From: Sphagnum compactum
Lineage: Eukaryota
Length of the DNA stretch: 64,000 nucleotides
Reading direction: 5' to 3'
NCBI GenBank assembly: GCA_965153455.1
Contig: OZ234493.1
Span: 7,368,213 to 7,432,212, forward strand
Every line of letters starts with the position of its first letter. The first letter of the stretch is position 1. Below, piece after piece: positions 1,895 through 59,900 of this stretch. The notes beneath the pieces are model-generated. The model did no database searches. It was not told the DNA's origin and was given only the letters and a program-made list of their open reading frames with translations. The translations under genes were made by a program, and so were the position numbers.

Positions 1895-4260
1895 GGTGTT
1901 GACATGAAGTAGACATATACCTACCCTAGTTCACAACACATGGTAGAGTAGGTAGTAACTAGGGTAGGTAGTAACCTTTAACAGTATGCCATGTGAAAAG
2001 GTTTTTTTTTTTTTTTCCTGGCTAAATTTAACCAATTGACAAAAAAATCTGTAATTTCTTGGCTTTCTAGTAGTCGCCAAATTTTGGAAATATACATAAT
2101 TTTTTGAAAATCTGCCAGAATTCTATAATGGGTTCTTTTTTTGCGTGTTTAGCCAGAAATGTCAACGATGCTTCAAAGAAATTTACTTTCACATCCTCCT
2201 GTTTATAGCCAAATTTGGCTAAACTGTCATCGGAATATGGATGATTTGCCACTTTAGCTACATATTCCAAAATTGACAAAGAACAATATTGGATGTGAGT
2301 GAGCAAGAGTCCACTTCAAAGGGTTGAATGTGATGTGATGGATGTGATGTTTGAATTAAGATGTTTCTATTGATGGTTTGATAGTGAAGGGAAAGCCTTG
2401 AATGACTTTGACAATCCTTCATCATTTGTTGTTCCCCATTGTTGTCCTCATCATCCCATCATCTATTGTTCCTCGTTGTAGTTGTCCCCATCATCTTTTG
2501 TTCCCTTTGCCAACTTTCTTCTTGTCCCATTGTTGAACTCATTATCCAAGTCATCGTCCACTATCATTGTCTCATGGTAAGTTTGTAATATGACTCGTTG
2601 CATGTGTAATGAATAACGTGCTTATAAATTTTCAACTCAACTTAAGATTGAATAAATTTTTTATGTAACCTACGTATTGTGATGTAATATACATTCGAGA
2701 ATGACATAGAAAAGAATATAAGTCCCTTCTATCAATATTTTTCAAGGTGAAAAAAGACTATCACCCAGAGCAGATGTTTGCTGAATATATCTCTCAGCAA
2801 AGTTTGCAAGAGACTTAACATGAACCATAATCCATGCATGTTGAGGAGCACCTTGATTTGACTGCATTTGCAGTGAACCTTAAGTTGAGTGCATTTAGAA
2901 TAATGCCTTATAATTCGCTTCATGGTTTAGACTGCATCCACTTTTCACAAATCCTGGTTAGGGACACTCAAAGCAATCACAGCAAGAGCAAGCCCAAAAC
3001 AAGCTACAATCTTCACATTAGTGCCCATTCACCTACAGCAAATGTTGCAGGCTACTTGGAGCTTAGTTAGAAACTAGAAACCCTCATGCAAGTGTTGTGG
3101 GCTACTTGAAGCTTAGCTAGAAACTAGGAATCCTCCTCATGCAGTCTACTCCCAGTACCTGGTGAGTCAACACTCCCACACCAAGTAGCAGATGTAAAGC
3201 ACTAAATGAATATTGGAGCTGGGAATCATTCAGGACAGAGACTTGTTTCAGCTTCATGGGCACAGTAGTGTCAGAGTCCCAGTCTCCTGTATTAGAAGAA
3301 TGGCTCCACATTGATGATTTTGCCTGCACATTCTCACAATCTGTGCATCCTCTCCCCACTCTCTGTATACACGGGTAGTGTTGAGCTGACTTCACATCTA
3401 ATTATGAAAGCTATATTTTGACCCAACTTCAGGAGAATCTGTTCTTAACAGTCTACTACACTGCTGTCGTTCAGAACATGTGTTATTGAAAGGGTCTATG
3501 ATCTTTCACAGATGTGTCTCGATAACAATCTCCTATCTCATGAGTTTCAATGGGTACACACTTAAGCAATCAGCAAGGTGCAGGAAAAAAATTCACTCAA
3601 TACACCCCATACCCTTCACCACTATTGAGAAGTAACAGAATCCTGAGTGTGACTTGGACATGATCAAATATGAATGATTTCAAATTGCCTCTGGCTCTGA
3701 AAGGTAATTTTTAATAGTCACTCTCAAATTCAATAATCAACTATAAAGCCTGTGCATCAGTCTCTAGGGTTTAGCTTTCCAATTATTCAATGGAGCCCAC
3801 AAAGTTTTTCTTACAAAGAGTGACAATTTGATGCACAGACCCCTTTGCCACTCTGCAGCATTGCACTCATCTAACCTTCATGCCCCTTCTCAACAAGTTT
3901 CTTGCTTTTGATCCTGTGGATAGGGTGCACTCATTGGAGTGATGGTTGCTTTCAATCTTACTGGCAGAGACACTCACTGGAGTGACAGCTGCAACTCCCT
4001 TATTACACATAAGAAACCCACATAACCAAAGTGGGGCGCTCATGAAACTGTAACAAATCACCTGCACCACTTGCCACATGACATGTGCTTAAATCAAATC
4101 TGTCAACAATTGAGCAAGATGCATTGACTATGGAAACCTGAAAAAATCCAAACCACCAACTCAACCAATCCTGTTTGTGTGTACAAGTCCAGTATCACAA
4201 ATAATTCCATGCCGGTGTCTCAAACACATCCGTGGAAATCACCTTATATCCAGATGGTTG

Positions 4261-17950: not shown

Positions 17951-18909
17951 GGTACATACTTGTTCTCCTGCCTGGGTCTGTGTCTCAACCATCCGTCGCC
18001 GTAACTGGGTGGGAGACAAATCTCTCTGTGTCTCTGTGTCTCTATGTCTCTATTGCTGTGTGTGTCTCTCCAACACTCTCAATCTCTAGGTCTATATAAA
18101 TCCTGGACTGTGGACACAAATGGGTATCTCTCTTCTTGCACATTCGTCCGGCACCAACGAACAAAAACTCTTAATAAACACAGGTGCGGAAGATATGTCA
18201 CACGCTCGACTGACTCCTCTTCTTCTGACAAAAAACCCTAGAAAAAGAAAAAAGACCAAGACGCACAAGCGCACTCACACACACAATCTTCTATCCATTC
18301 GCCCCCCTCCTTATTTTTTGTGATTTTGCGAAAAAAGGAAACATGAAGAAGTAGCAGAAGAAGAAGAGGAAGCAGACATGACAACTTACATGGCGATTGC
18401 AACGGGGGGAGAAGGCAAAAAGCCTCCAGGAACGTCGATGGGTGCTTCAAATCGATCAAGCACTGGATACACCCATCAAGATGAGAAGCGAAAACAGCCC
18501 AAAAACAGTCGAAAAACTTGTTTAACAGCCACAAAAAAAGCCAAGAGATCGTCGCGATGTTTCGCTCCTCCTCACTTCGCTTGTTCCTCGTCGTCGTCTT
18601 CTTCTTCTCTTCGTCTTCTTCGCTTCTTCCAGAGTCCAGATACCTTCTGGCGTTTTGCGTCCCTTACCGCGCGGTGCATCACGCGGCAGCCGCACGGTTC
18701 ATTTTTGTTTTTCCCACAAAGAAGCAACTCTATGTGTGTCTGTGAGAAGGTCTAGGGTTCAAATCCCTGTAACTTTTAGGTTCCACTAGGGATCTTGCCT
18801 TTTTGGATGACATTTTCAAAAGATGATTCTAATATGAAATCTTTCAAAATTGAAGATTTTTTTTTTTGGGTCAATGTCTCTTTGTTGCAAAATGCTTGAG
18901 ATTCTCCCA

Positions 18910-19402
18910 TTTCATTGCTTCTTGTCCAAGCTCTTTTCTTCCAAGAGCAAATCATTCTAAGACCTCTTTAGTCGCTAATGTTTTCAAAGTATAATTGATA
19001 CATAGATTGTTGGAAAAACATGACCTTCAATCCCGTTTCTTTGCTTCTTGTCCAAGCTCTCTTTTTCAAAGAGCAAATCGCTCTAAGACCTCTTTAGTCG
19101 CTATTGTTTTCAAAGTATAATTGATACATAGATTGTTGGAAAAACATGACCTTCAATCCCGTTTCTTAGCTTCTTGTCCAAGCTTTCTTTTTCAAGACCA
19201 AAATCGCTCTAAGACTTCTTTAGTCATTAATGCTTCAAAGTATAATTGATACATAGATTGTTGGAAAAACATGACCTCGAATCCCATTTCTTTGCTTCTT
19301 GTCCAAGCTCTCTTTTTCAAGAGCAAATTGCTCTAAGATTTTTTTAGTTGCTAATGCTTCAAAGTATAATTGATACATAGATTGTTGGAAAAACATGACC
19401 TT
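18910..19402. repeat. Tandem repeat, ~125-126 bp x4
   Basis: The unit ttgcttcttgtccaagctct...gagcaaatcgctctaagacctctttagtcgctaatg...caaagtataattgatacatagattgttggaaaaacatgacc starts at ~18915, 19041, 19167 and 19292. Confidence 0.92.
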
Positions 19403-19884
19403 TAATGTTTGGTGGAAATATTTGGAGGCTTGTAGCACATATGAGCAATATGGACATTTCATTTGATGTTTTTTTAGGGTTGATTAGATGACTTAAATTT
19501 ATATTTACACTCTTTTGTCGCCAACATCTTCACCAACATGATGAGATTATGGATTTTTGTCACAAGATTTGGTTGGAGTTGGAAACATGTTTAAACTTAG
19601 TATGATTTTTTTCATCTTCATGTCATATCTTGCGATTCATTGTTTTTAATGTTTATTCTCCCCCTTTTCCCTCAATCTTGTGGGATTTTTTAGAGCCTGG
19701 TGATTCATAATGTGAAAAGAAAACACAAGTTGGAGTTCAACAACCCTTAATCACTTTACAGAATCATAAATACAAGTTTGTTGATACTGGGATCAATTTG
19801 AAAATAGGACTTTTGTGATTTATGTGATCACATTTTTGATGAATTCAAAAATGTTGTTTATTTAGTGTTGTTTTAATGAATGAT

Positions 19885-21299: not shown

Positions 21300-23550
21300 T
21301 TGCCTAAAGTTATTTGCCTAAAGTTATTTCGCTATAGGGTTATGATGTAATCACCATGTTTCATTACGAGCTCACATAATTTGTTATTAGTTGAAATAAT
21401 TTATTATAGTTAAATAGGTTTCTTTTGTGTTGTTGTTTTAAATACCTTAGGTTATCGTATCCTAAACTTTTATAGGTTATTTTATTTTGAGTTATTTTAA
21501 ATTTTATTTTATAATATTCTTAATTATTCTTGGTTATTCACCCTAAAGGGTGTAGGCATGGTCAAGTAGACAAAAAAGTAGTCCACCCAAAATGCAATTT
21601 AAAAATGACATTTTTTTATTATATAAACACATGAAAGTAAATGAAAAACTTGTGTAAGTAGAAATATGAAAAAACATGGCCCTCCATTTAGTTTATGGTA
21701 AGTTGAATACAAAATTTGTATGTGGATTATAACATGCATAATTTGATAGTACACAAGTATTTTCTAAGACTTTCATGATTTGAAAATGGAAAACATTCAA
21801 TATTTCATCTACTTGTAACCCATTTTATAAAATAGGACATTACCTGCAAGTAGATGCAATTTTGTAAAATATATTTAAATCTACATGAAAATGTTCATAT
21901 TTCAAATTATAATATCAAAGTGAAATTTTATCTTCATATTAATCATTGAATAAAATAATATTCCTACTATCAATGCATTAATTTTTTTTTATGTTTACTT
22001 ATTATTTTTTGTGACAAGTAACATTTTTTGTCTACTTGACCATGCCTACACCCTAAACTATTCCAAACTAGATTTTTTTCGTTATTCTAAATTATTCCAC
22101 CCTAATTTGTTTTCAGTTATTTAAGTTGAACCTTTATAAGTTATTCTATGTTATTTTAGGCTAGTTACTATAAGTTTTTATTGGTTATTTTAATACATTC
22201 CACATTAGGGTATCATGGGTTATTCTTGATTATTTTAAATTAATTTAAAATATTTTACTATATGTTATTTATAGGTTATGTAACCCTAAAACAATATTTG
22301 TGATTATTTATTCTAAGTTATTCCAAACCATTATGGGTTATTTTATCATAAGTTAATCTAGGTTGTAACCTTATGATAACTTAGGATGGAATAGCCTAAA
22401 ATAACCAACAATAACCTAAAGTAAAATATTTTATAATAACTTATAATAGCCTAGAATGAAATAACCTAAAATAATTTCAAGTGGAATAATTTAGAATAAC
22501 AAAAAAAAATCAAATCAAATAACCTAGAATATAATAAGGTGGAATAACAAAAATAACAAAAAAACAAAAAACCTAAAAGAACTTAGAATAACTAAAAATA
22601 ACCTAAGGTGCAATAACTTATAATAACTTTAAATAACAATAGGTATAATAATTTATAATAACATAAGGTGTTACAGTTGATAATAACCTAAGGTTAAATA
22701 GCCTAAAATAGCTGAAAATGACCTTATTTAAAAATAACCTTAAGTGGAAACAACCTAAAATAAAATAAAAACTCATAATAACCTAGGGTGGAATAACTTA
22801 TAATAACCGAAAATAGGCTAGGGTGAAATAACAATAAATAATAACACCAAGTAAAATACTTTCAAATAGTCTAAAATAACATAAGGTGGAATAAAAAGAT
22901 GATTGAGAATAAAATAAAATAAAAACCAATAATAACCCAAGGTAAAATAGCTTAAGATGGAATAATCTAAATATCCTAAGGTGAAGTAACTTAAATAACA
23001 TAGGGTGCAATAGTTTAAATAACTTAAGGTGGAATAATTTAGAATAATAAAAAATAAGCTAAAGTAAAATAGTCTAGAATAACATAAGGTAGACTAACAT
23101 AAAATGATAAATAATTGCCTAAAATAGCTTAAAATAGTTCAAAGTGGATTAATAAAAAATAATCTAAGGTGGAATAACCTAAAATAACAAATAATAGCTT
23201 AAGGTAAAAATAACAAAAATAACATAGGGTGAAATAATTTATAATAACTTGTAATAAGTTAGTTTAGAATAGTTGAAACCTCAAATAACCTCAAATAATC
23301 TAGCGTGAAATAATTTAAAATAATATATAATCGTTTACTTTATAAAACTAAAAATAACTTAACATAGCCTAGGGTGTAATAATTTAGAATCACCTAGAGT
23401 GGGATTTTTTTTATAATAATTGAAAATAACCTAGAATAGCCTAGAATGGAATAACCTAGAATAGCTTGGGGTACAATAACTTATAATAGTTTATAGTATG
23501 ATAAATTAGAATAACCAAAGGTGGAATAACTAATGGTGGAATAACTCAAT
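21300..23550. repeat. AT-rich degenerate microrepeat array (aataacctaa / ttaggttatt) with two arms in opposite orientation
   Basis: Units read ttaggttatt/ttattcc up to ~22365 and ggaataacctaaaataa from ~22370 onward. Confidence 0.75.
21548..22053. mobile_element. MITE (non-autonomous DNA transposon), 506 bp, 30-bp perfect TIRs, TAAA target duplication
   Basis: gggtgtaggcatggtcaagtagacaaaaaa (21548-21577) and its exact reverse complement ttttttgtctacttgaccatgcctacaccc (22024-22053); taaa on both sides (21544-47, 22054-57); AT-rich non-coding interior. Confidence 0.9.
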
Positions 23551-24820
23551 TAACTTTTAATTAACTTTTAGTTCAATTGTAATTACCCTTTAGTTAATTT
23601 TCAGTTCACTTTTAATTAAGTTTTAATTAAGTTTTAGTTCACTTTCAATTAACTTTTAGTTAATTTATGGTTGAATCTCAATTCCTTTAATTAAATCTTA
23701 GTTCACTTTTAATTAAATTTTAATTCATTATTAATTCCCACACGGATGAACATGGGCCACACATGGGTCACTCATGGATGAACATGGGTCACATGTAAGT
23801 TGATTTTAAATTTTTTTTTTTTTTTTTGAACTAGGTGTTCAATGGGTATAAATAAAAGTAGAATCCCATATTATTTTCAATGTGTTCAACACCAGTTTTG
23901 GGTATATTTTCTTGTCACAAACTTGTTTTATTCTTATTTTGTTTTTGTAATAAAATCTTGTTGGATTTTTGTTTTTATTTTGTTTGTTTCGCAATTTGAA
24001 ATTGAAATTAGGCCTACTTGTGTTTTCGTTTTGGTTTACGAAATCTTGTAGATTTGATTGTTTTCGTGCTTGTGATAGTAAAAGATCAAATGGAAAAAAA
24101 TGAAATGCATCATTTCTTGATGTATGAATTTCATATTTGTATTTTCATCACCATACAACAATCAATTTGAACATAATGAACAAAGGTTAGTGAAAAACAG
24201 TTCAAGCAACTAATGTTCATTTTTTTTAAAAGTTTGAAATTTTGTTAATTACATACAAATGATTACTTAGTGTAAGGTTGTTTCACAAAGCAAAGAAGGG
24301 GTTTGGATGAAATTTTTTTATGTTTATTTTTGGTGTGTTTGTTTTGTTCTTTTGTAACCTTTGTAGAAATTCTTAAAAGCCTTAATTTTTTTGACATTTT
24401 GGGAACTTTGTTAAGGTTAATGAAAATCATTTCAAGGAACTATTTTTCACGTGTTGTATGAAAGTCAATCATTGCTAATTATGTACAAATAACTATTTAA
24501 TTTGGGGTTGTTTCACAAGATAAGAAGGGAAGCAAGGATGTTAGCTTGTAATTTGAATATGGTTCTCAAGGTAGAGGAACAATTTTGCCAAGGTGGTCTC
24601 CCATTGTTGGACTAAAACACAAGGATTGAATGTAATTTTTTCATATTGTTTGTAGTTTTGTTTTGTTTTTTTGAGACTTTTTAAAAATTATGGAATGTCA
24701 TGCCCGTACATGGCTTCATACATGATGGCCAGTTACGGGCATGCCCATGTGTGTTTTAGGGTTGATGTATAGTCTTAGGCGACTGTACGCCATTAGATAC
24801 TTAGGATTTGTTGACGACGG

Positions 24821-24828
24821 TATAAAAG
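24821..24828 (+). promoter_or_regulatory. Candidate TATA box of the retroelement
   Basis: tataaaag ~125 bp inside the 5' end, followed by a pyrimidine-rich stretch. Motif match only. Confidence 0.4.
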
Positions 24829-25279
24829 GTCCAAACCTTTCTTTCTCCTTTAGTTTTTCTAGAATTCCTTTGTCAGGAGTTTTCTCCATCATAAGCTAGG
24901 ATTTCTAGATGCTCACGGCGGCCATTGCACGGCCACCGTCTACATACACTTCATTTCTTTCTTGCTTTGCATTTCAATTCTAGAAAAACTCTATTCCCTG
25001 TTGCTTCATGTTGAAAGCAACAGATTTCTTATGCTTTTGAAATTCTTGAGTTGTTGCTACTCGTGTTGTTGCTGTCGAAAGGAGCGCGTTACTACTGTTG
25101 CTACTCGTGTTGTTGGAGGGAGCTTTGCGTTTCTTACAACCAACCAAGAGCTTTGCGTTTCTTACAACCAACCAAGCAGGGACAAACGAAGTCGGGACAC
25201 TAGAGAGCAGGTGTCAAAACTTCTCTATTTCTCCCATTCTTTTTCGTTCTTCAAGTTGTCGGGTAAAAAAAAAAAAAAA

Positions 25280-25930
25280 ACGTTGCGAGTTGTAGCGCTG
25301 TCGGACATCGCAGCAACGCTCAGAGGCCCAGCGCGCTGCTGGACATCGCAGCAACACGCTACGAGGTCGAGCGCGCTGCGACGTCCAGCGCGTTGTTGGC
25401 CATCGCAGCAACGTTGCGACGTCCAGTGTGCTGCTGCAGCAGCGCCGCAAGAACGCTGCAAGCTGCAGTGCGTTGCCGGCCAGCGCCGCAACAATGCTGC
25501 GAGCTGCAACGCTCCCGGCCATCGTTGCAGCGTTGTGAGGAGCTGCAGTGTAGCGCCGCCGCCCGCCATTGCCGTAGCGGCGGCTGAGCTCTACACGTTC
25601 GACGTCCGACTTTCGTCGGATGTCCGTCGGATTTTCGTCCGACTTTCGTCGGACGTCCGTTCAACTTTCGTCCGTCGAACTTCCGTCCAACGTCCGGCCT
25701 GCGTCATTGCTGACGTCATCGTCCTGCGTCCGGCCTGCGTCACTGTTGATGTCATCGGCTTGCGTCCCTGCTGACGTCATCGTCATACGTCTTGCTTGTG
25801 TCATTGCTGACGTCATTGCCCTACGTCCTGCTGACGTCATCCACTTGCCGTCCTGTGCCCTGTTGTCTTGTCGACTTGACGTCCTACACCCACGTCCTGC
25901 CGCCTTGACGTTTTACGTGATACCGTAATG
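25280..25930 (+). repeat. CpG-dense microrepeat leader inside the retroelement
   Basis: Three successive unit types: catcgcagcaacg(c/t)tgcg..., gtccgactttcgtcggacgtccg and gctgacgtcatcg...ctgcgtcc. Far richer in GC and CpG than the flanks. Confidence 0.85.
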
Positions 25931-26118
25931 CAGTCCTGCCTTCTACACATTGTGGTCATGCATTTTGTGGTCTTGTGGTCTTGTGTCTTGTAGCTTATCT
26001 TGTTGCATTCTGCCGTACTACTGTCCTGCGATTAGGGAGATTCAAACCATACATTGTGTTAGAATTTTGTAATTGAGGGATTATATTGGTACAAAATTTT
26101 GGGGCATGGGACAACACC

Positions 26119-27425
26119 ATGTCCTCGGATGATGAAAGTAGCATTACTCATCCAGAGCCAAGGTATCAGTTACGAAGTAACACACAACCCTTTGAACCAA
26201 TATCTTTGAGTTCACGATCTTCACGACGGTACCACCAAACATCCAACAAGCTAGCCACGAATGGATAGAGGGAGATGAAGAAGAGATAGTTTACGCTCAA
26301 GCTACTGAAAGCTTGAGGGTGGTTCCTACTGACATTCAACATGGACCAAAGGTTTTACAAAGGTTCAAAGTAGCCCATAAGCCCTTGGTCAAAGCTTTGT
26401 CTAGTTTTGAAAGCATGGAGAGCCATGGCGAATTGATTAAGCCATTACTCCGTCAGCTAATCACCTGGACACCACCTAAGGAAGGGATTACATTACTAGA
26501 GTTCTTTGGTGTATTGGTACAGGTCTCGAAGCCCTACTACAGTCAGGGATGGTGGTTCGAAGGTATTTCTACGTAGACATTGATCCTATTGCAAGGCAAG
26601 TGGCAGCATCGAGAATGATGGAGCTCACAACCAGATTTCCACAACAGTTTACAACCACCGCATGGAAGGCCAGTTTCACTTTCTTGCCCCATGACATACA
26701 ATTAATTCAGAATAAGCATATGGAATTACTTGGCCCCGTGGACCTCATCATTTCAGGTTGGGAGTGTCAAGGATTTTCAGCAGCTGGATTTGGAGAAGGC
26801 TTGAGTGACACAAGATCCGGTCTCTTCACGGACATGGTACGATTGATCACCTGGGCTCAATCCATTTCCCCTACGCTTGGTTATGTAATTGAGAACACCC
26901 CTTCTTAGCTTGACCAGAGGGAGAAAGTCCAGGAGCACTACACACTTGTCAAACATTACCTTGGAGAGCCGCTCCTACTCGATGCGGCACAATGCGGTTC
27001 TTATGCGCACCGGCTGCGCAACTGGTGGACCAACCTTGCACCACTTTCAATTTTGCAGTTGGCTCTGAGATACACCATCAGAGACCACAACCTGCAGGTT
27101 TCTCACATATTGGATGATCAGAGCTCTTGCCAACCAGTTACAAGGCAAGATAAACCTCCTTGGTTTCCTGCGAATACAATAGGAAAACCAAGAGGTGCTT
27201 GGCCCACCTTTGTCTTTCCCTGGAGCACACGCCTTTCAGGGAGATGGACCAGGCTTGGTGTATCGTCGTGCTTCAGCCACTTGGGATGAACCAAGCCTAG
27301 AAGAAAGAGAAAGGGCTATGGGGTTCCAAACTGGCACTACTAGTCACACCAAGGTGACTAGATTGGAGCGTAACGCTCTACTGGGGAGAAGCATGGACCT
27401 GAACTCCCTTACATGGTTGTTGGTA
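26119..27425 (+). pseudogene. Retroelement-encoded C5 cytosine DNA methyltransferase domain (frameshifted, one premature stop)
   Basis: Joined frames give motif I LLEFFG/GIGTG (1-bp frameshift ~26510), II YVDID, IV DLIISGWECQGFS, DTRSGLF, VI YVIENT, a TAG at 26906, VIII SYAHRLRNWWTN, a frameshift ~27212, IX EERERAMGF and X RNALLGRSMD. Probable ATG at 26119. Confidence 0.9.
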
Positions 27426-27749
27426 ACCTGTGTACTCTTTCAAATGTACACAACACCAACACTGACTCAATCAGCTTGCAGCTCTGACGATGCAACCACA
27501 TGGCACCTCGACCAAGTACACTTGCCTATCTTCAACACTCTACATTTCACTCTCAGTGTTGGGGGGGAGGAGGTACCATGTAATTTGACTCAAGTTATGT
27601 CCAATACACCTAGAGGTACATCAGCTTCTGGAGAAACAATTACAACCTTCTACGAATCTACGGAGTTGGATAATGGAGAACCCAATACACCAGGTTCTTC
27701 AAACACACTTTCCAACTCCATTCCATGTGTTTCCAACTACCCTTTTGTT

Positions 27750-29150
27750 ATGGGGAACCAGCTCACCAAGAAGGAGAGAGACCATGTCACAGACTTGCTA
27801 ATTAAGTATGAGAATGTGTTCGCATTCTCAATGAAAGACTTAGGTAGGTGTAAGACCATGCAGTTCTCTATAGACCTTACAGATGAGACACCCGTCCATC
27901 GAAGGGGGCATAGGTTGAGCAAACATGAATGGGAATTGGTAGATGAAAGATGCAAAGAGCTCCATGAGGCCGGTCTCATTCAGCCATCAAGTTCTGATTT
28001 CGCAGTCGCTATAGTAATGCCAGCAAAGAAGAATTTAGCTGGATTATGGACTGAGAAAAGGATGTGCGGGGATTATAGGCCTTTGAACCTGGTTACACCT
28101 CAGGACAGGTACCCCATGCCCATCCCTGAAGAACTGTTTGATAGCATTAGAGACTCAAACATCTTCACAATTGTGGATATGAGGCAAGGCTTCAACCAGA
28201 TTGTGGTCGTTGCAAAGGATCGCAAGAAAACGGCATTCCATGGAAGCAACAAGTTGTGGGAATGGCTTGTGATGCCTTTTGGATTGAAGAATGCACCTGT
28301 CTTCTTTCAGCGAGTCATGGACCAGGTTCTCGAAGGGGCAGATTTCCTAAAATGCTACATAGATGATGTCCTAGTGCATAGCAAGGGATTCTTGCAACAC
28401 TTGGCTCATCTTGAGGAGTTATTCAAGAGGCTCCACGAAGTCAATATGAAGATCCATCCTAAAAAGTGTGAGTTTGCTGTCACCTTAGTAGTCTACCTTG
28501 GACATAGAATTTTGCCAAATGGTATTATGGCTCATTGGGCCAAAGTAGTAGCCATTTTGGAGATGCCCGATCCTACTGATGTTCACACTTTGAGGAGCTT
28601 CATCGGACTATGTAATTACTACAGGATTTATGTCCAAGACTTCAGTACTATTGCTCATCCTCTCTATGCATTGTTAAAGAAGATGTTGCTTGGACATGGA
28701 GTGAAGAGGCTCAGGAAGCTTTCAACACACTCAAGGAAAAGCTTTCAGAGTTCCCCATTCTGAGAAGACCTGATTTCAGCAAGGTTTTCATTCTACACAC
28801 TGACTGGAGTGCTCTTGGTATTGGTGCTGTTCTTGGCCAACTTGATGAGGATGGCAAGGAATATGTTATCGCTTATGCATCCCGAAGCAACAACAAGGCT
28901 GAGAGCAACTACTCTTCATACGAGGGGGAGTGTCTTGCTGTTGTATGGGCCGTCATACATTTCAGGCCCTATCTTTATGGCACTGAGTTCACTTTGTATA
29001 CCGACCACCAGCCTATCAAGTGGTTGATGACCAATGACAAGCTTACTGGTAAGCTAGCTCGTTGGGCGCTTATATTTCAGGAGTATGAGTTCAAGGTTAT
29101 TCACCGACCTAGTATTACACATCAGAACGCGGATACCATGTCGCGGAGAC
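27750..29150 (+). pseudogene. Gypsy-type reverse transcriptase and RNase H (frameshift ~28682)
   Basis: RMCGDYRPLN, DRYPMP, DMRQGFNQI, KTAF, VMPFGLKNAP, YIDD (28356), KKCEF, YLGH, LRSFIGLCNYYR; RNase H LHTDWSALGIGAVL, YEGECLAVVWA, YTDHQP, KLARWAL, NADTMSR. In frame with DNMT motifs IX-X within ORF 27195-28763. Confidence 0.96.
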
Positions 29151-29439
29151 CCCTCACTACCTTTGAAGATTTCTCAGAAGCCAGACAAGACTTCGACCAA
29201 ATTCCGGCTGTACATGTATCTTATGCATCTAGTTATCTTGCACTACTGCAATGTAACCTGGTTGAACATCCCATTTTGGATATATGGGAGGACTTGGACA
29301 CTTTGAGGTTTCTTCAGCATGGGGAATACCCTCCCCAAGTTACATCAAGTCAGCGGGATCGCATACAACAACGATCCAAACGCTACTCATGGAAGGACAA
29401 TCACCTCGTCCGATGCTTACCACAAGGCGACAGAGTGGT

Positions 29440-30500
29440 TCCACCACCGCATGAACAGCTTGGTCTTATTCAGAAGGTACACTCGGAGCTTGGACACTTT
29501 GGAGTTAAGCGTACTTATAGCCTTCTCGTTCCTCATTACCATTGGAGAGGTATGTATGCTCAAGTCCGGGACGTCATCGCTAGGTGTGAACAATGTGATA
29601 GAGTGAGAGCTTCCTTCTCCTCTCGACAGCTCACCCTTTCTCCACTACCTATTCAGGGCATGTTCTATCGTTGGTCATGTGATTTAGCTGGAGAATTACC
29701 ACAGACCTCCAGGGGTAATGTCTACATCATGATTATGATTGAGCATTTTTCAAAGTGGGTCGAACTTGTTGCGCTACCAGACAAGTCATCACACAGCACT
29801 AGCTAGGCTTTCTTACAACAGGTTCTAAGTAGGTTTGGGGCTTGTGCTGAGTGCCTTACTGATCAAGGATCAGAATTCAGGGGAGAATTCCAAGACCTAC
29901 TTGACCATGCTCTCATTGACCATCGTCGGACTTCAAGAGATCATCCCCAAGCTGATGGCCTTGCAGAAAGGATGGTTCAAACATGCAAGAAGGGACTTCG
30001 GAAGATTTGCCTCACTAAGAACAAAGAGGATTGGGACCTGGCCCTCCCTTACATCGCCATGGGTTACAGGATGTCCAAACACGCCTCTTTGTTTCATTTC
30101 TCCCCTTACTTTTTACTTTTTGGGAGACACCCCATTCCACTTTCTTCCATTACTGCTCAAATGCACCAGGTTGTGGACTTGGATTCCCCAGTCACTTGGG
30201 CTAGGGTCATTGCAGAAAGGGCTGCTTTATTCAGGAGGGTTATGCCCATGGCCATGGAAAACCTATCCATTGCACAACATCGAGACACCTTATGGTATGC
30301 ACACACACGAGGTGGCAGTTAAAAACCTAAGGTGAGACAATTTGATGTTGGTGATTTTGTGTATCTTCAGCGACAACCCAATGATACTTTAGACACTTCT
30401 TCCGGTCGCACTATCTTGAGGATTAAGGCGATCAGGCCTTCAGGTGTGTTGGAGCTACAAGGAGCTGACGGACGCACAATTCGGGATCATTCCAAAAATT
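29440..30500 (+). pseudogene. Integrase (HHCC zinc finger, DDE core, C-terminal region), with in-frame stops at 29804 and 30320
   Basis: VHSELGHFG...RCEQCDR; WSCDLAG, IEHFSKWVE, LTDQGSEF, HPQADGLAERMVQTCK; SPYFLLFGRHP; FDVGDFVYL. RT-RH-INT order is that of Ty3/gypsy. Confidence 0.95.
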
Positions 30501-30574
30501 ATGCGCCTTGCCACCTGCCAAACTTGGACCCTACCATCATCACGTCGACTTGGATTCCTCCACTTGATTATCCA

Positions 30575-30727
30575 TGTCAGGTATGTCAGAGGACGGACGA
30601 TGCTGATCAGATGCTGCTTTGCGACAACTGTAATGGTGGATACCATCTCTTCTGCCTCAAGCCGGAGCTCACTCAAGTTCCCGTTGGCAATTGGTACTGT
30701 TCATCATGTTCTCCTACAACACCTTGA
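30575..30727 (+). CDS. C-terminal PHD finger (C4HC3) of the retroelement polyprotein
   Basis: CQVC-x8-LLCDNC-x4-HLFC-x-PELTQVPVGNWYCSSC then TGA at 30725-27; same frame as the integrase C-terminus. Confidence 0.92.
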   Translation, partial: CQVCQRTDDADQMLLCDNCNGGYHLFCLKPELTQVPVGNWYCSSCSPTTP

Positions 30728-30768
30728 TTCCTACTCAGACCATGCCATGCTTTTCCCGGCTCAGGTCT

Positions 30769-31131
30769 GGGGGGGGGATATATGAGAATTTCATCTTAGC
30801 CTCACTTATGCATTGTATATATATGTGTGCATGCATCTCTTTTTAGTTGATTGGTTTATACATTTGACTGGCTTTAATTTTTTTGTTTAGTAAGATTTAC
30901 TCTGTATTTACATCCTTACGACACTGTACGTCACGACACTACACGTCACGACAGCATACATGAGAATTTCATCTCAGCCTCACTTGTGCATTGTATATAT
31001 ATGTGTGCATGCATCTCTTTTTAGTTGATTGGTTTATACATTTGACTGGCTTTAATCTTTTTGTTTAGTAAGATTTACTCCGTATTTACATCCTTACAAC
31101 ACTGTACGTCACGACACTACACGTCACGACA
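30769..31131 (+). repeat. Polypurine G9 tract followed by two near-identical 176-bp tandem copies (period 178) forming the element's 3' end
   Basis: G-run at 30769-30777; copies 30778-30953 and 30956-31131 (ata(t/c)atgagaatttcatct...cactgtacgtcacgacactacacgtcacgaca). Confidence 0.93.
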
Positions 31132-31679
31132 GGAATCCTAAAAATTCATGTTGAAGTTAAGATCGTTTAAGTTGAAATCATGTTTACATATTGTTGTTTT
31201 GTAAGATTTTGTGTTGATTGAGATGAGTAAACTAACATGTGCTTTTTTTTGAACCTTGTGATTGATTGGGATGAAGAATTTTAATCTTTTGAGCTTGAAG
31301 GTGGTTGTAGAAATTTTTGGAACTTTGTGATATATTTTGAAGCTTTGTTAAGTTTAATGAAAAACATTTCAAGGAACTAATCTTTATGTGTTGACAAAAG
31401 TCGTTAAATTATGTGCAAACAAACATTTAATCTAAAGTTATTTCACAAAACTATGTGTTTGTTTTGATTTAGCACATTATACCAATCTAGGATTATAGTG
31501 TCACTAGGATTTTTATTAAAGGAGGCAATAACAACTATAAGTTACAACCCTAAAATTTTAATCTATAGTTATCGATTTAGGGTTTGGAGTAGCCTTTGGA
31601 GTTAAAGTATTTGCAACACAAAAGGGTCAAAGATGTGATCATCTTGTGAAAGCTACCATTTAAAGGTCTAATCATGGTT

Positions 31680-31875
31680 AAAGGAATGGTAAAAAAACGA
31701 GCAATCATGGGTGAAGGAATGGCCAAAAATGAGCAATCCTATGTTAAGGAATAGCCAAAAATGAGCAATCCTATGTTAAGGAATGGCCAAAAATGAGCAA
31801 TCCTATGTTAAGGAATGGCCAAAAATGAGCAATCCTATGTTAAGGAATGGCCAAAAATGAGCAATCCGATGTTAA
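31680..31875. repeat. Tandem repeat, 32 bp x ~6
   Basis: Unit aaggaatggccaaaaatgagcaatcctatgtt. Confidence 0.92.
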
Positions 31876-56922: not shown

Positions 56923-59900
56923 TAAAGACACAAAATACCACGAGAACAAAGGTCAAAAGAAAAGGTTTAAGTCTAACTTTTAAATAAAAAACAAGATAAG
57001 ATTATGTGATTCCAAAACAAGAACACAAGAATTAAGAATAAGAATACGAGGTGTGTAAGACCAACGTGAAAATAAATTTTTATTATGTTAACATATACAA
57101 ACATGAACATGAAAAGAACATGACAAGGTTATGGTGTAAAATCATGCCTAAGATTGGTGTTGAACAAATTGAAGGAAATGAAGGGTCTTACTCCTATTTA
57201 TACCCCTTTGGGGATTTAGCTCAAAGAAGTTTTCATGGAAGTCTATGTGTGCATTCGGTAAAAAAACTTCTTGAAAACCTTCCTAACTAAAAGTTGACTA
57301 TGAGTTAATTGAAATTTAATTTAAAATTAATTCAAATTTAATTAAGAGTCAACTGAAAATTAACTGGGGTTAATTATGAATTTATTAAAATTTAATTGGG
57401 ACTTAATTAAAAGTTAACTAAGAGTTAACTAAGAGTTAACTAGAAGTGAACTAAAAATGAACTACAATTTAATTAGAAGCTAACTGAAAGCAGATTAATT
57501 TAAACTACGAGTTAGATACATGTACATTACAAGTCATGGGTGAACATTCGAATGACGAACCCGATGACATTGTAATTTATGACGCCTAGCTTGGGGCCTT
57601 GTCCTACATATAATTCGATGTATAAGTTTCAAATTTTCATTTCTTATGATGTGATGTTATAATATATTTGTGCCAAATAAATGTAAATAATAATGTACTA
57701 AAAAATGCAAATATATTCCAAATTGAAATGATTTTTAATCTTTACAAAACTTTTAATTTTTATTAAATATTGTGATTCCATATGATTGAACTAAATTTAT
57801 GAACTATGTGAAGAGTTTTTTAAGGCAATGGCCATAAGTATATGATAAGAAATGTGAAATGGGCCATTTAAAAAAATTCCACTCCAAATAGTTTTTGGTT
57901 GATTAATTCAAACCCAAAACTAATGCAATCTAGTTTTTTTTAATAAAAATTTAATATTTATTTTAAATTTATCTTTTTCAAATAATATAACAATAATTTT
58001 GTGGAAATCAAAATATAAAACCTAAACACCAAAATTCAACACATTTTGAAAATGTATGCTTTTGATACATGTCATGAAAATGTCAAGTTGACCCCCTCAT
58101 AATGTGTTTTCACCCATTTGGCCTTTCTTATGAAGTACTCTAAAACCCACAATAAAATAAAAAACATTTGTTGAAATTTTGGTAAACAGAAAATTGTTCA
58201 AATTTTATAACTTTTTGAAAAAGCTTTAATCAACAAGTGTTTTGCATATGACAAAGGACTTTAAGAACATGGTCAAATCATTCCAAATTTAGAAGATTTC
58301 AACTTCACAAGCAGACAAACACAATTTCAAAAGATGAATAGAAAAAACATTGATTATAATCAATGGAGGTTTTCCAATGCAATAACATATAATTTTCATT
58401 ATTTGTCAACAATTGTTTTGGCTCCTTTTACTTTGAATACATTCATTTGTACATGGTATAAGGTTTACATATGGCAAAAGATTAGAGCTAAATCCAAGAA
58501 AATGTTTTTAGGCCTTCGGGTTCATGTGAAATCTTGTCCCTTGTCAAATCTTTTGCCTTCATATCACCCTTGAAAGTCAAAACAAATTAAAAGTTGCCAA
58601 TTAAAAGGAATTGGTCACATTCTTACTTACCATCTTTTAGAACTTAACCAACTAGTTTGGCATTACCCTTATAAGTAATGGGGATAAGTAATGGGGATAG
58701 TATACCAATGCCTTTTGAAGTTATCAAGTTGCCTTACTAGGTAAATTAACCCCTAGGCTGAAAATAACCCTTAAGCACAAAATAAATAATTAACCTCCTT
58801 TCACATTGTCTTTTATCATTTCCATGTTCCATTTCAAAGTCATTCAGAGGATTAAAAAACTAATATTTTTATATGGTTCATAATCAAATTTCATTTCAAC
58901 TGATTTATAATACACTTATGATTCAAAATAAATTTGTTCAGAATAAGCATCTTTAATGTTTAGAATGTTTAGAGGCCGGGCATGCATTTGTAGGATGTCA
59001 TATTTTGTTTCTTCTAATGAAGATTGTCCCTTTCAAGAATTCAAAGTTGCACCAAGAGTTTTGCAACATATCATTAAGAGGTTGAATCAAAAATTCTTTT
59101 CCCATTTGCAACACGTCTATGATTGTTATGAAATATTGATGACTTACAAAGAAAGACAAACTAAAAAGGTTCATAATCAAAATTTAGGATCATATGATTA
59201 GGGGAACATAACATAGAAGAAAAAAATGAAATGTGTGATGTTTTTCAATTTAAAATTCATTTGTTAATTGTTTGTGACATTGTATTTGCATTTGTCCTCC
59301 TCCTACAAGTTTAAAATCATAATCATTTCATTTGTTCCTCCTTACAAATACCTTAACATTTTTTTGCTTTACGTTGAATGTTTAAGGCCAAATCAATCTA
59401 CTCGCAAATCCTTAGTAAATTTGGGCCTTGTGAAAATGACATATTCACAAATTGTGTTTGTGTTTTTTGTTTCCATTCTCTTTTGCTCATAATTTGCATG
59501 ATTATTTCAATTTATTGCAACGACACAAATTTAAGGAATGTCAAACAAGAAGACCATTCATCAAGGTTATGTTTTATGTACAAAATAGTCACTTTAAAAA
59601 TGATTCACATAATAGAATGATTTACATAATAAAATGATATTCATAGAAAAATAATATTGTTGTCCCAACCTAAAAATTAATTTCAATTTTCTTCACATTT
59701 TATGGTTGTTTAAAAAAAGATGTCTACATCAAGCCTCCCTTATTAAAATTCCTCAAATATTATTTTTTCCATTGGTTGTGAAAAGAAAAGAAAAACATAC
59801 TTCATTAAACTCAAAATTTTAATCAAATTCATTTAATAAATTCAAGTAATTTCAACCACCATCCATATATAATGATACCATATAATTTGGGATACACCAT

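Follow-up and report, generated by a model that had tools for sequence, protein, structure and literature searches.

A stretch of 64,000 nucleotides of DNA from the moss Sphagnum compactum, referred to here as the window, contains a decayed, internally deleted Ty3/gypsy-type element, and comparison with related copies revealed a family in which the terminal repeats, A and B, are split and permuted. The layout, the target-site duplications (TSDs), the matching of repeats within elements, a fixed spacer, a variable join and the complementarity of a primer site are all observed in these copies. The integrated form is read here, with reasonable confidence, as a circular permutation of an ordinary two-LTR cDNA whose working LTR is B–GC–A, and which would arise when the cDNA ends are joined and the left palindrome is opened. 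The broader proposal, towards which we lean only slightly, is that in an old gypsy clade extending from chlorophytes to mosses and liverworts the integrase attachment site has left the cDNA ends for a palindrome that lies inside the LTR and is inherited, and that end-joined (2-LTR-circle-like) cDNA is the obligatory integration substrate.

Structure of the window copy

The outer ends of the window copy are TG at 24696 and CA at 31130–31131, and its features are as follows.

24692–24695 (+): left 4-bp TSD, GGAA; 4-bp TSDs also occur in related insertions
24696–24976 (+): repeat A, 281 bp, bounded by TG...CA; in the LTR equivalent it is the promoter/R/U5 part, and in intact copies it recurs between B units as A2
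24821–24827 (+): TATA-like box with a presumed promoter role, aligned in 9 related elements
24852–24866 (+): predicted RNA 5' end and self-primer, 31 nt past the TATA start; perfect 15-nt complement of 24976–24990
24976–24990 (+): putative self-priming primer-binding site, from sequence complementarity, directly after repeat A
24991–26118 (+): 5' leader with GC-rich short tandem repeats
26119–26243 (+): start of the gag frame, running into the ~2.8-kb internal gag/protease deletion at about 26238–26243
26436–27430 (+): C5 cytosine methyltransferase domain, DNMT3-like (PF00145, E 5e-09)
27740–28680 (+): reverse transcriptase, YIDD present, frameshift near 28675 (PF00078, E 7e-27)
28697–29086 (+): RNase H (PF17917, E 2e-39)
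29444–30322 (+): integrase carrying an HHCC finger and the D, D, E motifs, with in-frame stops at 29804–29806 and 30320–30322
30575–30709 (+): C-terminal PHD finger (PF00628, E 3e-13)
30769–30777 (+): polypurine tract (PPT), G9, directly 5' of B1; most of the related copies listed have a G-run ahead of B1
30778–30953 (+): repeat B1, 176 bp; in the LTR equivalent, this is the 5' part of U3
30954–30955 (+): GC spacer, which in intact copies forms the centre of the palindrome GACA-GC-TGTC; in the window copy B2 adjoins and A2 is missing
30956–31131 (+): repeat B2, 176 bp, its last bases being the terminal CA
31132–31135 (+): right 4-bp TSD, GGAA

A first-pass annotation of this DNA had placed GGAA directly outside both ends and a head-to-tail duplicate of a 176-bp 3' unit after G9, and both were recovered at the positions above; B1 and B2, with GC between them, are 96.6% identical, and their six differences are all transitions. 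Two absences that it had described were likewise confirmed: self-blastn of the window gave no direct repeat shared by the 5' region and the 3' unit, and there is no tRNA-Met-type primer site inside the element, the tRNA-Met-type motif (at most two mismatches) having three matches in the window where 4.25 are expected by chance. The element has no Rfam match and no tRNA gene. The inverted ends that had been reported are present as a similarity of ~7 nt (TGTCRTG), but no longer end-to-end arm pair occurs among the 25 longest of the 216 inverted repeats listed. The claim that both flanks belong to one older repeat is partly upheld by a degenerate unit of ~230 bp on both sides (24388–24518 versus 31324–31448, 75%), but an empty site was found neither in the window nor in 821 kb of related loci.

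The methyltransferase domain is broken by frameshifts near 26500 and 27215 and by a stop at 26906–26908; its best solved relatives are DNMT3C, HhaI and DNMT3B, and its affinity to Dnmt3 comes from a weak best match (E 1.5e-4). The gag/protease deletion is private to the window copy and has imperfect repeats at its breakpoints; a protease is present in related copies. The DNA-methylase domain, this deletion and the self-priming site are features absent from the first-pass annotation.

Repeat layout and TSDs in related copies

In 121 related metagenome loci the family layout is A–internal–PPT–B–GC–A–B, with A corresponding to 24696–24976 of the window and B to the 176-bp unit. Compared with this layout, the window copy has lost the inner A along with about 2.8 kb of gag/protease, and it is the loss of A that leaves B–GC–B. 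After removal of duplicates by flank (from 34 to 29 elements for the B alignment, and from 150 to 119 B ends), A follows B in 27 of the 46 distinct PPT-anchored B ends, and 33 of 37 distinct B–NN–A junctions run on into a B unit. The B alignment excludes L065 and L129, and the indel count excludes the B1 of L111.

The order PR–RT–RH–IN with a DDE integrase (the protease being taken from related copies), TG...CA ends with TSDs in the 4–6 bp range, and a primer site behind the left repeat with a PPT ahead of the right one, the primer site being judged from sequence to be of the self-priming type, are those of Ty3/gypsy elements; however, instead of one complete LTR per end, the repeats are split and permuted, with A on the left and B–GC–A–B on the right. 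The gene order of the clade is gag–PR–DNMT3–RT–RH–IN–PHD, the methylase being often, not always, present. The RT clade includes proteins of Marchantia, Closterium and Haematococcus, chromodomain proteins lie outside it, and the window copy, L187 and L188 represent three of its sub-branches. Scans of viral contigs yielded no family member; the 64 loci of one scan include L001–L003, the only three analysed, which are a different gypsy type.

Among 15 distinct related insertions with both ends, nine have exact 4-bp TSDs, three are one transition off and three have none, and exact 5-bp duplications occur in 0 of the 15. In a cross-pair control only 1 of 210 pairings gave an exact 4-bp match, and the boundaries and TSDs are therefore not a chance coincidence. 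These reproducible boundaries and variable 4-bp TSDs agree with the earlier suggestion of an integrase-mobilised element, and the permuted, split repeats of related copies agree with the unconventional regeneration of ends that it had envisaged.

Repeat matching within elements

In nine elements, 693 non-transition site patterns join A1 with its own A2, versus one that joins A repeats by position. For B, in 29 elements, 2056 patterns join B1 with its own B2, versus 31 by position, with a control value of 33. Within-element matching extends over the variable length of both repeats, the last ~40 nt of B being too conserved to score, and the divergences of A and B correlate (r 0.71, n=8, p 0.05).

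Palindrome, spacer and A|B join

The spacer between B and A is 2 nt long in 37 of 37 junctions (AC 15, GC 12, GT 6, AT 2, AA 1, GA 1) and is GC or a transition product of GC in 35 of them, and the palindrome between the two repeats is GACA-GC-TGTC. GACA-GC-TGTCAC was also found behind a G-run in L186, L187, L188 and L189, whose proteins are 44–55% identical to P0003; L187 and L188 look like collapsed assemblies, which display the palindrome and not the integrated layout. In L190 and L191 no palindrome junction was seen in the sequence, which reaches ~60–90 nt past the frame.

The join between A and B carries 0 extra nt in 8, 1 in 2, 2 in 20 and 3 in 3 of 33 copies, and the background indel rate is 0.001 per column. 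Join length differs between sister copies and has no signal on the A-repeat tree (13 changes, P 1.0), a poorly resolved tree with 17 of 30 inner branches open, on which a control label does have signal (P 0.008). The 0- and 2-nt classes could in part come from slippage in ATAT. Five of eight aberrant joins into B, a small sample read by eye, break inside the first 5 nt of B. Microhomology between primer site and B start is AT in the moss family and CTTGA in L187, and there is none in L188.

A putative self-priming site

By sequence, the putative primer site complements the 5' end predicted for the element's own RNA and not a tRNA. The complement is 15/15 in the window copy and at least 12/15 in 15 of 18 copies, the other three scoring just 10–11/15, and the control maximum was 11 at 1100 positions. 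In 17 of 18 related copies the best complement begins at the last base of A, and L187 and L188 have other sequences with the same primer complementarity. In folding predictions, pairing of the predicted RNA 5' end with the primer site appears only in the centroid; in the MFE structure that end pairs with a closer site.

Proposed route to the integrated form

Every biochemical step of the proposed route is one that we infer. The RNA would start in A1, about 30 nt past the TATA box, and end in A2, and its 5' end would pair with the site after A1 to prime the minus strand, as in Tf1. Plus-strand priming at the G-run would then give a linear cDNA, [B–GC–A]–internal–PPT–[B–GC–A], whose ends would have no usable TG...CA pair. 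The right end (the end of A plus 0–3 nt of primer site) would be joined to the left end (the start of B), either through ligation, which gives a 2-LTR circle, or through a third template jump of the RT. Finally, the integrase would cut both strands after CA at the palindrome in the left LTR, leaving 2-nt 5' overhangs, and would insert the product A–internal–B–GC–A–B, creating a 4-bp TSD. The window copy probably came from an error in this route, the right-hand palindrome having been cut before end joining, so that GC was kept and A lost; it is useful because its break falls exactly at the position predicted by a staggered cut.

It should be noted that several observations count against end joining. 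A symmetric circle should also yield A–B–GC–A–internal–B, yet B stands before none of the 17 leader-linked A units; only the left palindrome appears to be used, and the end-joining reading gives no account of that asymmetry. Furthermore, three of the 15 complete insertions have no TSD, the MFE fold favours the nearer site, and three of 18 primer complements are weak. Marking of one palindrome by the element's own methylase, as a cause of the asymmetry, was made less likely by L188, which has the palindrome and no methylase match in its sequenced part; L190 (74% identical to L188, with a 2152-aa frame) also has no methylase match.

Alternative explanations

Replication of the PAT/Ngaro type combined with an integrase, in which RNA would run from A1 into B2, the inner B1–A2 would template both ends and the A2|B2 join would be inherited via RNA, is improbable. 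Its attraction is that the layout equals the A1–internal–B1–A2–B2 order given for DIRS-type elements in PMC8969392 and in the Fig. 4 legend of PMC5890265; this mode of replication might also account for the single observed permutation, and B is T-rich and 3' UTR-like. However, no separately inherited B2 lineage was detected over B positions 1–150, the A|B join lacks phylogenetic signal and is unlike between sister copies, and the primer site and PPT are placed as a B–GC–A LTR requires. Still less probable is that ordinary two-LTR elements acquired these end layouts once inserted, through deletion, recombination or gene conversion, with the B–GC–B of the window as a late deletion or an assembly error. 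The copies are old (about 75–95% identity to the window copy), the A–internal–B forms (19 of 46 PPT-anchored B ends) and the solo A–B units fit repeat recombination, the window copy has a private gag deletion with imperfect repeats at its breakpoints, and its B–GC–B join was read from the assembled sequence. On the other hand, TSDs, exact or one transition off, flank the permuted ends of 12 of 15 insertions, so the layout was in place when they inserted; at the window join, which coincides exactly with both functional positions, there is no microhomology, and a collapse would leave one B, not two with six differing sites. For the window join taken by itself, late deletion is a more serious candidate, which we nevertheless consider unlikely.

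The first-pass annotation had suggested a Ginger-like retroelement that lacks LTRs, has short inverted ends and carries a tandem repeat at its 3' end only, a reading that is now barely credible. It holds for the window copy alone: in intact copies A recurs between two B units at the 3' end, so that the 3'-only tandem belongs to the damaged window copy, and the 119 distinct B ends include no further B–GC–B join. There is also a putative self-priming site, together with a PPT. Ginger DNA transposons resemble the moss family in having a gypsy-like integrase, TG...CA ends and a 4-bp TSD, but they are not known to carry an RT and have longer TIRs, whereas the moss family has an RT and an inverted similarity of ~7 nt. 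Conventional paired LTRs in other copies, the finding that the annotation had named as fatal to its own reading, did not turn up either; those copies have split, permuted repeats. Altogether, end joining followed by opening of the left palindrome is the preferred reading.

Relation to known elements

Retroviral-type integrases are understood to act on linear cDNA ends, and 2-LTR circles are mostly seen as by-products. The genomic copies of this family look as they should if joining of the ends and an internal palindrome were the normal route, a question that is testable with a defined 10–12 bp substrate. If true, this would be a natural, heritable case of a circle-junction integration route and would explain the origin of split direct repeats from an LTR. 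Abutted-end junctions with 2–4 bp spacers, on both ends of which a DDE enzyme acts, are known from IS3, IS21 and IS30; these are bacterial DNA elements, whereas in the moss family the spacer is a fixed GC that passes through an RNA intermediate. A precedent is foamy virus, whose integrase, as reported in PMC1180852, cleaves the palindromic LTR–LTR junction of 2-LTR circles, so that cutting an internal palindrome gives processed ends; that palindrome is the end-to-end junction itself, whereas the one in the moss family is inherited and lies inside the LTR, 176 bp from the join.

Families with split direct repeats in the DIRS order include PAT, Ngaro and TOC1. The layout, described in PMC8969392, is that of the moss family. 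DIRS-type elements have a tyrosine recombinase and are not known to make a TSD, whereas a DDE integrase, TG...CA ends and 4-bp TSDs characterise the moss family; no Pfam match to a tyrosine recombinase was found in the frames scanned, 8 from the window, 12 from four related copies and 6 from L187, L188 and L190. Primer sites that complement the RNA 5' end, and not a tRNA, are described for Tf1/sushi and Tcn1, the latter present in mosses, in PMC4600332 and PMC6317226. The moss family appears from its sequence to share this complement, but those elements have paired LTRs, with chromodomains in Tcn1, whereas it has permuted repeats, often a DNMT, and a PHD finger after the integrase in place of a chromodomain. 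Troyka, which PMC12440569 reports from animals only, is also gypsy-like with unusual ends; it was rejected, as its CG...CG ends, 3-bp TSDs and paired LTRs differ from those found here in end bases, TSD length and LTR pairing.

No literature was found on a "split LTR" with an integrase. In the literature searched, with Repbase, theses and subscription journals outside its scope, no match was found for a Tf1-type self-priming site or for A1–A2 and B1–B2 within-element matching in such a family, for the GACA-GC-TGTC palindrome between B and A, for a variable, signal-free A|B join, or for an end-joining and internal-palindrome route in integrase-driven retroelements. A DIRS-like layout in a gypsy element has already been noted once, in the Fig. 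4 legend of a 2018 report (PMC5890265), for KnitGypsy-Dnmt3 of Klebsormidium nitens, which carries a Dnmt3-like methylase in its Gypsy Pol; among the papers listed, the name KnitGypsy occurs only there, and no named K. nitens sequence was among the sequence matches listed. Compared by description with what that source gives, the two have in common the A–coding–B–A–B repeats, from which the window copy lacks the inner A, and a methylase in Pol that is Dnmt3-like by sequence in the moss family. The present data thus offer a mechanism for a layout noted once and left unexplained, suggest how DIRS-like split repeats relate to LTRs, and extend DNMT-carrying gypsy elements to a moss, in a clade that surveys resting on paired LTRs, e.g. 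REXdb, would miss.

Terminal structure of the element and its family

The decayed gypsy-type retrotransposon of the window starts with TG at 24696 and ends with CA at 31131, with GGAA immediately outside each end. The first-pass annotation had described these ends correctly, together with a 3' tandem of 176-bp units (repeat B) after a G9 run, a 5' region that occurs once within the window, and the lack of a tRNA-Met-type primer site there. Its claim that both flanks belong to one older repeat held in part: a degenerate ~230-bp unit is common to both, but no empty site was found in the window or in 821 kb of related loci.

Features of the window copy (window positions)
24696-24976: repeat A, revealed by comparison with metagenome copies
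26238-26243: site of a ~2.8-kb gag/protease loss
30778-30953: B1, first copy of repeat B
30956-31131: B2, second copy of repeat B

Between B1 and B2 stands GC, and the two units show 6 differences, every one a transition. Related copies were collected by pattern matching to either element end, giving at least 121 metagenome-contig stretches (long flanks for 80) from eight assembly ids, selected for intact ends, deduplicated by flank, and ~75-95% identical to the window element. Their layout is A–leader–gag/PR–DNMT–RT–RH–IN–PHD–PPT–B–NN–A–B, where PPT is the polypurine tract and NN a 2-nt spacer. Among 46 distinct B ends anchored by the PPT, 27 run into A and 19 into flank; a further 47 B ends are preceded by A and followed by flank, and solo A–B units were also found. 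The gag/protease loss and the loss of the inner A are private to the window copy, which is a defective family member.

Target-site duplications (TSDs), proposed earlier as a check on other copies, were exact 4-bp matches of varied sequence in 9/15 distinct two-ended insertions; three others differed by one transition and three had no TSD, compared to 1/210 in a cross-pair control. One right end (L126:9320-9340) is one 15-nt subterminal repeat short, yet has an exact 4-bp TSD, which suggests that an inner CA may be usable as a cut site.

A palindromic spacer, a single-LTR pattern and a putative self-primer

The B|A spacer was 2 nt long in 37/37 distinct junctions, and was GC or its transition products in 35. 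It centres the palindrome GACA-GC-TGTC, each half of which is one terminus of the element. Four distant relatives (L186-L189), whose proteins are 44-55% identical to the related protein P0003, also have this palindrome after a G-run, and L186 carries PPT–B–GC–A–B, where A and B are of unrelated sequence. The L186-L191 contigs bear a eukaryotic retroelement within four prokaryote genome records; we infer that L186-L189 are eukaryotic contaminants, and L186-L191 probably represent algal or bryophyte contamination of prokaryote bins.

The two A copies of one element (A1 and A2) match each other, as do B1 and B2. For A, 693 non-transition site patterns united the two copies of an element and one united copies by position (9 elements); the corresponding values for B were 2056 and 31 (29 elements; control 33). 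These data indicate that B–GC–A behaves as a single LTR. The number of extra nt at the A|B join ranges from 0 to 3, and most of these are the initial bases of the primer site; 13/33 joins were non-modal, versus 0.001 indels per column as background, and join type gave no signal on the poorly resolved A-repeat tree (P 1.0; control P 0.008). Five of eight aberrant joins into B break within its first 5 nt, as expected if the start of B is a free cDNA end. An inverted leader piece lies immediately before B position 4 at L172:83-160, possibly a product of auto-integration or inversion.

In the window, the 15 nt beginning at the last base of A1 are a perfect complement of 24852-24866, 31 nt past the TATA start. 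The best complement begins at the same place in 17/18 copies and exceeds the control maximum of 11 in 15/18, and the distant relatives L187 and L188 show the same complementarity with different sequences. Such complementarity, here to the predicted RNA 5' end, is the signature of Tf1-type self-priming (PMC4600332, PMC6317226). The primer pairing is present in the centroid structure of the predicted fold and absent from the MFE structure.

Coding content and phylogeny

The window frames encode a C5 methylase, RT, RNase H, integrase and PHD finger, with YIDD, integrase HHCC and D, D, E, and methylase motifs IV and VI present, and are interrupted by three frameshifts and three stops. Longer relatives, including named Marchantia and Closterium proteins, have the order gag/protease–DNMT–RT–RH–IN–PHD. 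Among solved structures, DNMT3C was the methylase's best match, a weak one. The labels of matching sequencing runs name moss. In a 50-row RT tree the window falls within a 36-row clade (SH-aLRT 95, quick search) alongside Marchantia, Closterium and Haematococcus proteins. The relatives P0047, P0048, P0049 and P0051 carry the methylase after RNase H and ahead of the integrase, not before RT, which implies either a move of the domain inside the clade or two separate captures. The apparently intact distant relative L187:3-6635 has gag-PR-DNMT and RT-RH-IN-PHD in one frame with a single stop between them (3489-3491), suggesting read-through, which would account for many ~1050-aa RT-to-PHD and ~1330-aa DNMT-only proteins among relatives. 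The window leader (25295-25841) is GC-rich, contains 40-, 11/33- and 25/36/61-bp tandem units and many ACGT/TGACGTCA motifs, and varies more from copy to copy than the coding region does.

Proposed integration route

From four sequence features, namely the fixed palindromic spacer, within-element repeat matching, the self-primer and the variable A|B join, we infer the following route. Self-primed and PPT-primed reverse transcription would yield the cDNA [B-GC-A]–internal–[B-GC-A], the ends of which would be joined as a ligated circle or by an RT template jump; cutting both strands after CA at the left palindrome would then produce precisely A–internal–B–GC–A–B, bounded by TG...CA. The main gap is an asymmetry, in that the alternative permutation was absent (0/17). 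The methylase is probably dispensable for the layout: the palindrome is present in L188, and no methylase match turned up in the sequenced part of L188 or in its close relative L190. Double cutting and later recombination are both compatible with the A–internal–B and solo A–B forms.

At the window join, GC is kept, A is gone from its first base, and the sequence continues at the first base of B, with no microhomology. A cut at the right palindrome ahead of end joining would leave just this product, and it is the origin towards which we lean; a late deletion of the inner A is a less likely source of the same join, and an assembly error is improbable.

Comparison with known elements

The family resembles self-priming gypsy elements in its way of working, DIRS split-repeat elements in its appearance and retroviruses in its integration. 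It differs from DIRS in having TSDs and in showing no tyrosine-recombinase domain in the frames scanned (8 from the window, 12 from four related copies, and 6 from L187, L188 and L190), and from canonical Ty3/gypsy in lacking paired LTRs. Ginger and Troyka were both excluded as its identity. The Klebsormidium nitens element KnitGypsy-Dnmt3 matches the family in having a Dnmt3-like methylase inside a Gypsy Pol, and its figure legend gives a DIRS-like repeat arrangement (PMC5890265); layout and DNMT cargo are already in print (also bioRxiv 10.64898/2026.05.21.726589). Chlamydomonas Gypsy-7a_cRei, with a PHD finger and 'LTR subparts' (10.1101/2022.06.16.496473), is a candidate relative by description, and foamy-virus integrase has been reported to cut the palindromic junction of circles (PMC1180852). 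The A1–internal–B1–A2–B2 layout of DIRS-type elements is given in PMC8969392, and PMC8557442 was consulted as well. No description of the internal palindrome, self-primer or permutation model was found in the open-access literature searched, the readable parts of PMC5890265 included. What makes the family valuable is how its ends are built and the implied route of integration, which is open to testing.

Other repeats in the window

A 126-bp unit is repeated four times in tandem at 18905-19406 (90% matches), and a 32-bp unit six times in the right flank at 31681-31875 (93% matches). Left of the element, 22370-23740 holds arrays of 25/35-bp and 11-bp units; the 11-bp array and ~70 bp near 23841-23910 reappear inverted near 57.1-57.5 kb (57138-57506), perhaps marking ends of older DNA transposons.
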